Sequence record: OR845278.1
DNA length: 5,303 nucleotides
Reading direction: 5' to 3' (one strand)
Origin: Escherichia phage ECO95 1-6-1
The notes below the pieces were generated by a model. It worked only from the letters and a program-made list of their open reading frames with translations. It was not told where the DNA came from and searched no databases. The position numbers and the translations under genes are program-made. Positions 1 through 5,303 of this stretch are shown here, in pieces; position 1 is the first letter of the stretch; the number at the start of each line of letters is the position of its first letter.

Positions 1-11
1 TAAGAGACAGG

Positions 12-278
12 GTGATATCTCCTGGTATTGAATATATGGAGGATGGTCTTCCCGATCCGGTGAAAGCCATGGGGCGGATCCTGGTGGAAAACCTCTGCAT
101 TGATCCGAAACTGGCACTGGATGCGGCCTGGCGTCTGGCGCAGTTCACGCACCATAAAAAAGGGGATACCGGGAAAAAATCGGCAAAAGGTGATGCGGCG
201 AAAAAAGCGGCTAACCGTTTTGCGGTGCCACCGCCACCCCGACTGGTGGTGAATAATGATAATGAGGGCAACGGATGA
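12..278 (+). CDS. Small lysine-rich hypothetical protein (88 aa from GTG at 12); candidate small terminase subunit or packaging accessory protein, translationally coupled to terL
   Basis: Open frame ending at TGA 276-278, which overlaps the terL ATG at 275-277 (ATGA overlap). The start codon is GTG at 12 with only a weak AAGAGA-like SD; the frame is also open to the left window edge, and alternative in-frame ATGs sit at 36 and 69, so the true 5' end is uncertain. TAA at 1-3 is in another frame and may be the stop of an upstream gene. C-terminal tail is basic and low-complexity (HHKKGDTGKKSAKGDAAKKAANRFAVPPPP). Position directly upstream of terL is where terS normally sits, but no recognisable TerS motif was seen. 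Confidence 0.45.
   Translation: MISPGIEYMEDGLPDPVKAMGRILVENLCIDPKLALDAAWRLAQFTHHKKGDTGKKSAKGDAAKKAANRFAVPPPPRLVVNNDNEGNG
264..268 (+). promoter_or_regulatory. Shine-Dalgarno (GAGGG) for terL, 6 nt upstream of ATG 275
   Basis: GAGGG at 264-268 followed by a 6-nt spacer and ATG at 275; it lies inside the 3' end of the upstream ORF, consistent with coupled translation. Confidence 0.5.
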
Positions 279-1936
279 TACCTGTATGGAGCACAGCCTG
301 CCCGGACTGGGCAGAGCGCCTGAAAAAGGGGCTGTCGATTATTCCGGCTCCGATTTATCCGGAGCAGGCCGCACATGCCCTGGCGATTTTTAAACAACTG
401 CGGATTGTGGATGCACCGGGTAGCCCGACGTTCGGGGAGTCCTGTGCACCGTGGGTGTTTGACCTGGTGGCGGCCCTGTTTGGCTCCTACGATGCGCAGA
501 CCGGTGTACGCCATATCAAGGAAGTTTTTATCCTTATCCCCAAGAAAAACTCGAAGTCCACGCTGGCTGCGGGGATCATGATGACGGCGCTGTTACTGAA
601 CTGGCGGCAGGCGGCGGGCTACACCATTCTGGCCCCGACCGTGGAGGTGGCGGCTAACGCCTTCAACCCTGCCAGGGATATGGTACGACGGGACGATGAT
701 CTGGATGACCTCTGCCAGGTACAGACCCATATCCGGACCATCACCCACCGGGTGACGGACACCACCCTGAAGGTGGTGGCAGCCGATCCGAATACGGTGT
801 CCGGTATCAAGTCCGTGGGTACGCTGATTGATGAGTTGTGGCTGTTTGGCAAGCAGTGCAAGGCGGAGGACATGTTACGTGAAGCCATAGGCGGCCTTGC
901 CTCCCGCCCGGAAGGGTTTGTGGTGTATACGACCACCCAGTCGAATGAACCTCCCGCCGGGGTGTTCAGACAGAAACTGCAGTACGCCCGGGATGTGCGC
1001 GACGGCAAAATTCATGATCCGCACTTTCTGCCGGTGATCTTTGAACACCCTCCTGAAATGGTGGAAAGCGGGGCTCACCTGCTGATGGAAAACCTCGCCA
1101 TGGTTAACCCGAATCTCGGTTATTCGGTGGATGAGGCTTTTCTGTACCGGGAGTACCGTAAAGCCCGGGAGGCTGGTGAGGAAGCATTTCGTGGCTTCAT
1201 GTCAAAACATGCCAATGTGGAAATTGGTCTTGCCCTGCGCTCTGACCGCTGGGCGGGGGCGGATTTCTGGGAGCAGCAGGGCAGGCGCGTCAGCCTGGAC
1301 GATATCCTGCGGCGTGCTGATGTGGTGACGGTGGGGATTGACGGCGGGGGGCTGGATGATCTGCTGGGGATGTATGTGATTGGGCGTGACCGGGAGACCC
1401 GCGAATGGCTGGGCTGGGGCCATGCCTGGGCGCATGAAACCGCGGTGGTCCGACGGAAGAGCGAGGCGTCCCGGTTTCAGGATCTTGTTGCCTGTGGAGA
1501 TATGACCATTGTCCGGCGTGTCGGGGATGACACGGCGGAAGTGGCGGAATATGTGCGTCGCATTCATGAGGCTGAGTTACTGGACCATATCGGTATTGAC
1601 CCGTCAGGGGTGGGGCAGATTCTGGATTCACTGGCGGAAGCCGGGATCCCCGACGGAATTGTGGTGGGGATAAGCCAGGGCTGGAAACTGGGCGGGGCCA
1701 TTAAAACCACCGAGCGCAAACTGGCTGAAGGGGTGCTGGTGCATGGTGACCAGCCCCTGATGGCCTGGTGTGTCGGCAATGCCCGGGTGGAGCCTAAAGG
1801 TAACGCCATTCTTATCACCAAACAGGCCAGTGGACGGGGAAAAATTGACCCGCTGATGGCGCTGTTCAATGCGGTCTCCCTGATGTCCCTTAACCCGGAA
1901 CCGAAAAAGAAAGAATATGCGGTTTTTTTCATATAA
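275..1936 (+). CDS. terL: Phage terminase large subunit, HK97-type (Terminase_1-like), 553 aa
   Basis: Long ORF ATG 275 to TAA 1934-1936. N-terminal ATPase region has a deviant Walker A-like motif (FILIPKKNSKSTLAAG, compare the xPRKNGKS/T motif of HK97-type large terminases). C-terminal region has an RNaseH-like nuclease signature (VVTVGIDGGGLDD ... GKIDPLMALFNAV). Size and position upstream of capsid and portal genes fit. Confidence 0.9.
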   Translation: MIPVWSTACPDWAERLKKGLSIIPAPIYPEQAAHALAIFKQLRIVDAPGSPTFGESCAPWVFDLVAALFGSYDAQTGVRHIKEVFILIPKKNSKSTLAAGIMMTALLLNWRQAAGYTILAPTVEVAANAFNPARDMVRRDDDLDDLCQVQTHIRTITHRVTDTTLKVVAADPNTVSGIKSVGTLIDELWLFGKQCKAEDMLREAIGGLASRPEGFVVYTTTQSNEPPAGVFRQKLQYARDVRDGKIHDPHFLPVIFEHPPEMVESGAHLLMENLAMVNPNLGYSVDEAFLYREYRKAREAGEEAFRGFMSKHANVEIGLALRSDRWAGADFWEQQGRRVSLDDILRRADVVTVGIDGGGLDDLLGMYVIGRDRETREWLGWGHAWAHETAVVRRKSEASRFQDLVACGDMTIVRRVGDDTAEVAEYVRRIHEAELLDHIGIDPSGVGQILDSLAEAGIPDGIVVGISQGWKLGGAIKTTERKLAEGVLVHGDQPLMAWCVGNARVEPKGNAILITKQASGRGKIDPLMALFNAVSLMSLNPEPKKKEYAVFFI

Positions 1937-1961
1937 CCCTGTTCACACTGTAACCATCATG

Positions 1962-1982
1962 AACCGCTGCGGCGGTTTTTTT
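1962..1982 (+). terminator. Candidate intrinsic terminator: 6-bp stem (AACCGC/GCGGTT), 4-nt loop (TGCG), then a T7 tract (TTTTTTTATTTT)
   Basis: Inverted repeat 1962-1967 / 1972-1977 read directly from the sequence, immediately followed by T-run 1976-1982 and more Ts to 1987. Lies 26 nt after the terL stop and just before the capsid-gene SD. The stem is short, so termination efficiency is probably partial. Confidence 0.4.
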
Positions 1983-1988
1983 ATTTTC

Positions 1989-3937: not shown

Positions 3938-3952
3938 GTCTGATGAGGAGGA

Positions 3953-3972
3953 CGGGAGGCGTGCGCCTCCCG
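3953..3972 (+). other. Perfect GC-rich RNA/DNA hairpin (8-bp stem CGGGAGGC/GCCTCCCG, GTGC loop) in the capsid-to-small-ORF spacer; not followed by a T-tract
   Basis: Inverted repeat 3953-3960 / 3965-3972 read directly from the sequence; downstream is TAACAGGTTATG. It sits 16 nt after the capsid stop and 10 nt before ATG 3982. The stem sequesters a GGGAGG (SD-like) motif. Confidence 0.6.
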
Positions 3973-3981
3973 TAACAGGTT

Positions 3982-4203
3982 ATGGCAAAGATCCGATATC
4001 TGCAGGGCACGCATGATGCCCGGGCCGGGGATATCCGTGATGTGGCACAGCCGTGTGCGGAGGTGCTGGTTCGCCTGGGAAAGGCGGAGTACATCACGGT
4101 GCGACGTCCGGCAGGTCAGAAAAAGAAACGTGATGCGGAGCATGGCGAATGTGGAACCTTTTACGGCGAACCCGAAAAAACCAGAAATCAGGACGTGATG
4201 TAA
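3982..4203 (+). CDS. Hypothetical small protein (73 aa) between capsid and portal genes; possible head-completion or connector-type protein, function unknown
   Basis: ORF ATG 3982 to TAA 4201-4203 with coding-like third-position GC bias. The product (MAKIRYLQGTHDARAGDIRDVAQPCAEVLVRLGKAEYITVRRPAGQKKKRDAEHGECGTFYGEPEKTRNQDVM) looks like a plausible small basic protein. Its SD is weak, and its last 55 nt overlap the predicted portal start in another frame. An alternative frame-2 ORF (4013..4198) is W/R/C-rich and looks like out-of-frame noise. Confidence 0.45.
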   Translation: MAKIRYLQGTHDARAGDIRDVAQPCAEVLVRLGKAEYITVRRPAGQKKKRDAEHGECGTFYGEPEKTRNQDVM

Positions 4204-5303
4204 AAGAGGTGGGCTGGACCAGCCTGTTTCAGGCGGTGGCTGAGCCTTTTGCCGGCGCCTGGCAGCAGGGCGTGAAAGCCGATCCTGAAGCCGTCCTCTC
4301 CTTTCATGCGGTGTTTGCATGTATTTCGCTGATATCCCAGGATATCGCCAAAATGCGGCTGCGTCTTATGCAGACGGATGCGCATGGGATACGCAGGGAA
4401 ACGCGCCGGGGGGATATTGCCCGCCTCTGTCGTCGTCCCAACGCCCAGCAGAACCGCATCCAGTTTTTTGAACTGTGGCTGAACGCCAAACTGCGTCATG
4501 GCAATACGGTGGTGCTGAAAATCCGTAATGCCCGGGGGCAGATCAAAGAACTGCGTATTCTGGACTGGAGCCGGGTTGAACCTCTGGTGGCGGATGACGG
4601 CGAGGTGTTCTACCGCATCACGCCGGACCGGAACTGCGGGATCACGGAGGCGGTGACGGTGCCTGCCCGGGAAGTGATCCACGACCGGTTTAACTGTTTT
4701 TTTCATCCGCTTGTGGGGCTGCCGCCGGTGTATGCTGCCGGGCTGGCGGCCACGCAGGGGCATCATATTCAGGAAAATTCGACGTCTTTTTTCAGAAATG
4801 GCGGCAGGCCGTCCGGGGTGATTGAGATCCCCGGCAGTATTACGGAAGAAAATGCGAAAAAACTGAAGAGCAACTGGGACAGCGGGTATACAGGCGAAAA
4901 TGCGGGGAAAACGGCCATTCTGAGCAACGGGGCAAAATACAACCCCACGACGTTTTCACCGGTGGATGCGCAGACGGTGGAACAACTGAAGATGACCGCT
5001 GAAATTGTCTGTTCGGTGTTCCGTGTCCCGGCCTACAAGATTGGCGTGGGACAACCGCCTTCCAGTGACAACGTGGAGGCGCTGGAGCAGCAGTATTATT
5101 CCCAGTGCCTGCAGACGCTGATTGAGTCCATTGAACTGTTACTGGATGAGGCGCTGGAAACGGGGGAAAACGAGAGTACGGAGTTTGACGTCACCACGCT
5201 GCTGAGAATGGACAGCGAACGGCGCATGAAAACGCTGGGTGAGTCGGTGAAAAATACGCTTCTCACGCCCAATGAGGCCCGTAAACGTGAGAACCTGCCG
5301 CCC
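4149..5303 (+). CDS. Phage portal protein, HK97 family (Phage_portal-like); 3' end truncated by the window (385 codons present, no stop)
   Basis: Frame open from the stop at 4131-4133 to the window end. First ATG at 4149 is preceded by GGAG (4137-4140) with an 8-nt spacer. The translation shows portal-family hallmarks (FFRNGGRPSGVIEIPGSITEENAKKLKSNWDSGYTGENAGKTAILSNGAKYNPTTFSPVDAQTVEQLKMTAEIVCSVFRVPAYKIGVG). This ORF is absent from the supplied track only because it lacks a stop codon in the window. Confidence 0.88.
   Translation, partial: MWNLLRRTRKNQKSGRDVKEVGWTSLFQAVAEPFAGAWQQGVKADPEAVLSFHAVFACISLISQDIAKMRLRLMQTDAHGIRRETRRGDIARLCRRPNAQQNRIQFFELWLNAKLRHGNTVVLKIRNARGQIKELRILDWSRVEPLVADDGEVFYRITPDRNCGITEAVTVPAREVIHDRFNCFFHPLVGLPPVYAAGLAATQGHHIQENSTSFFRNGGRPSGVIEIPGSITEENAKKLKSNWDSGYTGENAGKTAILSNGAKYNPTTFSPVDAQTVEQLKMTAEIVCSVFRVPAYKIGVGQPPSSDNVEALEQQYYSQCLQTLIESIELLLDEALETGENESTEFDVTTLLRMDSERRMKTLGESVKNTLLTPNEARKRENLPP

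Follow-up and report, generated by a model that had tools for sequence, protein, structure and literature searches.

Gene content of the locus

We analysed a 5,303-nucleotide stretch of DNA from Escherichia phage ECO95 1-6-1 (OR845278.1), hereafter the window, which carries packaging and head-assembly genes of the HK97 type, among them a single gene in which a prohead protease is fused to a major capsid protein. Open reading frames (ORFs) and their translations were taken from a six-frame listing of the window, and protein families were assigned by profile searches against Pfam, NCBIfam and PHROG. All window genes are encoded on the single plus strand, and every ORF within the window is intact. 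Searches for the terminase, Peptidase_S78, Phage_capsid and Phage_portal families, proposed in an earlier reading of the bare sequence (the original prediction), all returned matches.

The window opens within terS, whose 3' part (11-278) comprises the last ~89 of 187 codons and matches PHROG 641 (E 1e-30) over profile positions 85-162 of 162; the protein is annotated as 187 amino acids (aa) in relatives, and the copy here begins upstream of the window. An ATGA overlap joins terS to terL (275-1936, 553 aa), which matches the Pfam families TerL_ATPase (PF03354) and TerL_nuclease (PF20441) as well as PHROG 9 and 7622. The next gene (2000-3937, 645 aa) starts at a GTG and encodes the fusion of an S78 protease and an HK97-type capsid protein, recognised through Pfam, NCBIfam and PHROG matches. 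A strong Shine-Dalgarno sequence, AGGAGG at 1989-1994, can be read 5 nucleotides (nt) 5' of this GTG, and a consensus scan placed a terminator-like GC hairpin, AACCGC-tgcg-GCGGTT followed by a T-run, between terL and the capsid gene (1961-1988). Downstream of the fusion, a small ORF (3982-4203, 73 aa) with a basic C-terminal tail matches PHROG 829, a family of unknown function (E 4e-39). The portal gene begins inside this small ORF, at an ATG at 4149 that corresponds to the portal start annotated in BP-4795, so that the two genes overlap by 55 nt. Its product belongs to the HK97 portal family (PF04860 Phage_portal, E 3e-81; TIGR01537, 349 bits with the cutoff at 112), and the first 385 codons are present (4149-5303) before the window ends; in relatives the portal is 454 aa long and extends past this point.

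The order terL, fusion, small ORF, portal differs from the order terS, terL, portal, protease, capsid of HK97, and both the non-canonical arrangement and the protease-capsid fusion described in the original prediction are confirmed. The packaging and capsid set had also been described as complete-looking, which it is not: terS and portal are truncated, and the adaptor genes are not within the window. Rfam and tRNA scans of the window gave no matches, and a promoter scan of the window found no sigma-70-like site. Long minus-strand ORFs within the capsid gene, such as that at 2543-3436, were taken to be by-products of GC-rich coding sequence.

A widespread head module of lambdoid phages

We found that bases 11-5303 of the window match 92 phage records at 96-98.7% nucleotide identity by megablast, with 91 of these covering at least 80% of the window and no gaps relative to most of them. 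The matches include the Shiga-toxin (Stx) phages BP-4795 (Stx1-converting), YYZ-2008, 2851 and 1717, many Stx1a and Stx2c phages, and Lys8385Vzw (96.8%). BP-4795 and the other phages named here, together with lambdoid prophages of E. coli O157, have the same genes, order, overlaps and intergenic hairpin as the window. Compared with BP-4795-type relatives, the window has ~70-190 substitutions, mainly in terS and the 5' part of terL, and its exact TerL protein sequence is not on record in a collection of 15 billion proteins. The capsid protein is identical to entries in 8451 blocks of the protein collection, and the module is present in 1258 of 5426 complete E. coli genomes (about a quarter), with a median of 2 copies per genome and a maximum of 8. 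This head module is already known and is very common in E. coli prophages, including Shiga-toxin phages, and its gene order, which can be read from deposited phage sequences such as AJ556162 and NC_004813, is neither rare nor new.

In BP-4795 and in one O157:H7 chromosome, the module sits within a standard lambdoid late region. Upstream of it lie Q, stx where present, holin, lysozyme, Rz, HNH and terS; downstream are the head-tail adaptor, head closure, gp10-like, tail terminator and major tail genes and the G/T chaperones, and further downstream the tape measure, M, L, K, I, J, Lom and fibre genes. The same layout was found at 8 loci encoding the identical capsid protein. For a wider survey, BP-4795 proteins were searched by tblastn against 90 E. 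coli loci, with the counts restricted to loci that had enough flanking sequence; a scan of IMG/VR, which gave near-identical E. coli loci only, served this survey. The major tail gene was present downstream at 43/43 loci and the tape measure at 36/37, lysozyme and Rz were present upstream at 47/50 and 48/50, respectively, and terS with terL was found at 76/76. Lambda-like tail, lysis and regulatory modules accompany the module in relatives, some members of which also carry stx genes.

One carrier of the module is a viable phage: Lys8385Vzw has been induced, and its imaged virion has a long non-contractile tail (PMC6986202). The lambdoid prophages Sp6, Sp9, Sp10 and Sp12 of O157 Sakai are described as organised slightly differently from lambda in the head region, and Sp10 has been transferred to K-12 (PMC2669165); we infer that these four prophages carry the window's module. 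Particles attributed to these lambdoid prophages in O157 Sakai were reported to have an elongated head of 44 x 95 nm (PMC2669165). Lys8385Vzw was reported with an 84-nm head, alongside odd two-capsid particles (PMC6986202). The capsid geometry of the lineage seems unsettled.

On this basis we identify the window, with high confidence, as the packaging and head-assembly genes of a lambdoid siphophage of the BP-4795 type, a group made up of the genus Marienburgvirus and many E. coli prophage relatives.

The protease-capsid fusion and a candidate nested start

Profile matches divide the 645-aa fusion into two parts. Peptidase_S78 (PF04586) spans aa 48-152 and Phage_capsid (PF05065, E 5e-14) aa 386-635; the HK97 prohead protease model TIGR01543 also matched, and the HK97 major capsid model TIGR01554 scored 78 bits in an alignment that starts at aa 204, while PHROG 617 covers the protein end to end (E 3e-261). 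We delimited a protease at aa 1-~160, a variable linker at ~161-192, a helical delta-like domain at ~193-262 and a capsid body that runs to aa 645. Ser110 of the fusion aligns with Ser114 of HK97 gp4, and His55 falls one residue off gp4 His65. His55, Ser110 and Glu135 are invariant in 30/30 sequences, of which 28 are fused (the window and 27 relatives) and 2 split, and judged by its sequence the S78 protease looks active. A sequence search of the PDB with the fusion gave only a marginal capsid match (9d9w, E 0.002) and no match for the protease part.

By homology with HK97-type systems, TerS, TerL and the adjacent HNH protein would cut cos DNA and package it through the portal, and the N-terminal helical delta-like domain would mediate assembly of the capsid protein. 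The S78 serine protease (His55, Ser110), as a tethered domain, would enter the prohead and there cut away the delta domain, the linker and its own chain, after which the shell would expand and fill with DNA.

Sequence conservation within the fusion gene points to a candidate internal start at 2561-2578, formed by AAGGAA at 2561-2566 and an ATG at 2576-2578 that encodes Met193. This methionine is invariant in 10 proteins from several genera, and each of 27 lineages compared has a start codon (ATG in 26, TTG in 1) either exactly there or no more than a few residues away. An AGGA, GGAG or GAGG core lies 5-12 nt upstream in 24/27 lineages, the other three having AAGGG, compared with a background of 6.9% at other codons; the comparison is descriptive and carries no P-value, since the lineages are related. 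No other segment of the protein is as poorly conserved as the linker at aa 161-192, which has indels and averages 41% identity. The Shine-Dalgarno-like motif occurs in varying codon phases within this segment (K-G, K-E, Q-E, T-G and Q-G), which favours the RNA over the protein as the target of selection. Alphaproteobacterial versions retain the start codon though it is shifted by one to four residues, and in Diaphorobacter the TGA of the protease overlaps the ATG of the capsid gene, at a methionine one residue before the Met193-aligned position.

These features may mean that the conserved Shine-Dalgarno sequence and ATG at 2576 yield a 453-aa free capsid protein beside the 645-aa protease-capsid protein initiated at GTG 2000, a proposal that we hold to be evenly balanced. 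With two starts of this kind, only a fraction of subunits would bear the protease, and the ratio between the starts would set the number of proteases per prohead. If the nested start is true, this common lineage would offer a convenient system for studying the dosing of a capsid-tethered protease in HK97-type assembly, and conservation of the two-start layout would reach from Enterobacterales to Alphaproteobacteria within a large HK97-type branch that is structurally uncharacterised and is further marked by its gene order, the conserved small protein and a repeat-bearing gene after the portal.

Several points weigh against our identification of the module and the reading of its fusion gene. 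The flanks of the window lie outside the sequence and the best nucleotide identity is 98.7%, so the context is that of relatives. Many such O157 prophages are defective (PMC2669165), and the window copy may not make phage. An AlphaFold2 model of the fusion, built on a 10-sequence alignment, had a predicted local distance difference test (pLDDT) score of 38.5, too poor for confirming a capsid fold; its only confident part was a set of helices at aa 195-261 (pLDDT ~75). Profile comparison with HK97 gp5 detected no similarity and gave no position for the cleavage site or the crosslink residues. We found no protein-level data for the fusion or the internal start and no paper that tests a nested start. 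The conserved methionine and purine-rich stretch could also be a relic of an ancestral gene boundary or a linker motif maintained at the protein level.

This last point belongs to an alternative in which the identity of the prophage is the same and only the full-length 645-aa fusion is made, with a protease on every subunit and Met193 and its motif left as a fossil of the gene boundary. The gene is one ORF with a strong Shine-Dalgarno sequence of its own at 1989-1994, and its full length has been kept in about 25 lineages. Protease-capsid fusions are moreover a routine annotation in actinobacteriophages, and NCBIfam has a dedicated model for another fusion. Set against this are the frequency of the upstream core relative to background, its varying codon phases in so poorly conserved a segment, and the start codon that Alphaproteobacteria keep despite its displacement. 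We regard a single product as a tentative possibility whose chances fall somewhat short of even.

Contig end and possible sequence mosaicism

The first ten bases of the window, TAAGAGACAG (1-10), are non-homologous to the rest of the group: all BLAST matches to relatives begin at base 11, and relatives have CACCGCCCGT or CTCCGCCCGC at this position. We take TAAGAGACAG to be the last ten bases of the Tn5/Nextera mosaic-end adapter, and bases 1-10 are probably an untrimmed adapter remnant at a contig end. Because these bases resemble an adapter and match no relative, the window is probably an entire short-read contig. The apparent compression of the gene set into 5 kilobases (kb), which had drawn attention in the original prediction, is then probably just the size of a short-read contig from a multi-copy prophage repeat. 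In 6296 of the 8451 blocks with an identical capsid protein, the longest contig carrying it is only 2-10 kb, as would be expected if a repeat shared by several prophages per genome gave such breaks.

Mismatches between the window and its best relative are unevenly spread, with 56 of 80 in the first 1500 bases, compared with positions 1500-4000, where the capsid gene is nearly invariant. Two explanations could account for this clustering in terS and the beginning of terL: natural mosaic recombination or a collapsed-repeat consensus. Under the latter explanation the contig would be a collapsed or chimeric assembly of paralogous prophage copies, and its exact sequence, including the TerL variant, would occur in no genome. 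The adapter-like 5' end, the concentration of mismatches beside a near-identical capsid region, the presence of up to 8 module copies per genome, the many blocks with short carrying contigs and the unrecorded TerL sequence all favour such a collapse. Opposing it, the ORFs are all intact, and natural mosaicism among these prophages would be expected to leave the same mismatch pattern. We consider a collapsed assembly unlikely, if worth keeping in mind, and even so the identities of the genes would be unchanged.

Comparison with capsid-forming satellites

The original prediction had asked whether the unusual head module came from a prophage or from a satellite resembling a capsid-forming phage-inducible chromosomal island (cf-PICI), which would make its own small capsids and borrow the tails of a helper phage. 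Some features appear to fit a satellite. The window by itself holds packaging and head genes only, with no tail gene, and cf-PICIs do encode HK97-type terS, terL, capsid, protease and portal genes. A merged protease-capsid gene is known from some cf-PICIs of Firmicutes (PMC10085698). The window has such a set of its own, yet this does not discriminate, because ordinary phages have one too.

By published criteria, cf-PICIs are ~10-18 kb long, and holin and tail profiles rank as forbidden components in SatelliteFinder (PMC10085698; bioRxiv 10.1101/2025.02.11.637232). We found no island of 10-18 kb with an integrase, a regulator (alpA/merR/stl) and a primase-replicase in the relatives, where the module sits instead in phage genomes of 48-65 kb. 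Holin and tail genes are present in the close relatives with enough flanking sequence, whose capsid protein is 96-100% identical, the major tail, tape measure and lysozyme genes at the counts given above. A small T=4 capsid sized for the island genome is a further cf-PICI trait; the genomes packaged by the relatives measure 48-65 kb.

As a cf-PICI comparator we used Sp7, a prophage of O157 Sakai (L124:9711-25171; 15.46 kb), which carries integrase, primase, major head protein, prohead protease, portal, adaptor, terS and terL genes and no tail genes. We infer from its size and layout that Sp7 is EcCIEDL933. Sp7 is listed as 'untypable', and its gene ECs_1595 is labelled 'holin' where cf-PICI papers place an HNH endonuclease. 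Like the window, Sp7 has an HK97-type packaging and capsid set within a few kb, departs from the HK97 gene order and encodes a TerL of 553 aa. Its order is nevertheless a different one, namely capsid, protease, portal, adaptor, terS, terL, with protease and capsid as separate genes. Identity between counterparts is 23% for TerL, 25% for the portal and ~30% over 101 aa for the protease, and similarity between the capsid proteins is barely detectable. At 23-30% identity, the window proteins are no closer to Sp7 than to HK97, in contrast to 96-100% identity to the proteins of complete phages.

A satellite origin of the window is thus extremely improbable, given the tail and lysis genes of its relatives and the distance from Sp7. 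The prophage side of the original question stands and the satellite side falls away: relatives are collinear with known, complete temperate phages and have the tail, tape-measure and lysis genes that had been named as speaking against a cf-PICI. Head genes alone on a short contig do not speak for a capsid-forming satellite, since multi-copy prophage modules are exactly where short-read assemblies break.

Distribution of the lineage

We detected full-length fusions of 644-650 aa, at 73-78% identity, in Salmonella, Enterobacter, Klebsiella, Serratia, Pantoea, Kosakonia and Yokenella. The Serratia and Yokenella fusions lie within prophages with lysis and tail genes. In Pantoea (L012 and L108), genes for antitoxin/Fic, an S24 repressor, Bro and pRha interrupt the tail region beyond the tail tube gene, which suggests that this copy is a mosaic or decayed prophage.

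Wider diversity came from a scan of one genome per species, which returned 28 loci at 47-80% identity from three proteobacterial classes (Enterobacterales, Alpha- and Betaproteobacteria), including Proteus, Arsenophonus, Rhizobium, Methylobacterium, Haematobacter, Brucella, Dichotomicrobium and Diaphorobacter. As far as contig extent and BLAST sensitivity permit, these loci share a core order of terL, protease-capsid, portal and a following gene, here called X; HNH, terS, the small ORF and the adaptor gene were detected mainly in Enterobacterales. Two lineages, Diaphorobacter and the second copy of Brucella daejeonensis, have protease and capsid as separate genes in the same order. Since the order recurs across 28 species, it is an old, stable trait of a large HK97-type branch and not a local rearrangement.

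Portal and gene X beyond the window

Past the end of the window, relatives have either a 454-aa portal followed by the overlapping gene X (ATGA) or a single ORF of 807-1023 aa. The two states differ in a poly-G tract ~190 nt past the window end, G5 in the split form and G6 in the fused form (L001:25480-25503; L008 about 13490). Of the classified E. coli loci, 41 are split and 23 fused, and the split state was found in all non-E. coli relatives examined and in the imaged phage Lys8385Vzw. For this reason the RefSeq description 'frameshifted portal' and the PHROG label 'portal protein' for X may be misleading, and the label 'frameshifted portal pseudogene' on many O157 prophages may hide an ordinary two-gene arrangement.

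Gene X (L001:25500-26885, L008:13500-14729, L011:13493-14386) has ~54-aa tandem repeats, variable in number, and a conserved C-terminal domain with a sub-threshold match to CBM_5_12 (24.5 bits against a cutoff of 26.2). It was detected 3' of the portal in 26 of the 28 species, and the contigs of the other two end there. The label 'portal protein' of PHROG 1289, to which X belongs, was probably carried over from fused forms.

Intergenic hairpin and small ORF

Besides the window, 17/17 enterobacterial lineages tested have the hairpin upstream of the fusion gene. It lies 17-25 nt from the start of that gene, its loops vary, and its stem shows one compensatory change. The GGAGG or GGAG sequence 5' of the fusion gene is conserved in other genera. 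The hairpin would be an intra-operon terminator passed by Q-modified polymerase; the late operon of HK97 likewise has annotated internal terminators.

The small ORF is a real conserved gene. It is found as a product of 51-58 aa at 20 other loci, all in Enterobacterales, where gene finders often leave it uncalled, and it follows the pattern M..[IV][RK]YL[QK].THD...G, later G[KY][AV]E[YF], and then a basic tail. Loss of the stop codon in E. coli has extended it to 73 aa and into the portal start. Pfam and NCBIfam gave no match for this protein, and a homologue search of the protein database returned only E. coli 'hypothetical protein' entries.

Comparison with known head-assembly systems

The module shares many features with HK97. 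The portal is 27% identical to gp3 and TerL 23% identical to gp2 over 489 aa, the S78 protease has the same serine and histidine, the capsid protein belongs to the TIGR01554/PF05065 family, and in relatives an HNH gene adjoins terS and adaptor, head closure and gp10-like genes follow. Unlike HK97, the portal gene comes after the capsid gene, protease and capsid form one ORF, and an extra small ORF and gene X stand around the portal. By annotation, the 'major capsid and protease fusion protein' of actinobacteriophages (clusters AU, EE, AN and AW) is the same kind of gene in other hosts.

Nested protease and scaffold genes include lambda C/Nu3, Mu I/Z and herpesvirus UL26/UL26.5. With a start at Met193, the fusion gene would resemble these in giving a long protease-bearing product and a short in-frame product that share a C-terminal assembly part, and the likeness would mean co-assembly of a sub-stoichiometric protease. 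It would differ from them in that the shared part is the capsid protein with its delta domain rather than a separate scaffold, and in that the internal start is predicted from conservation of the DNA.

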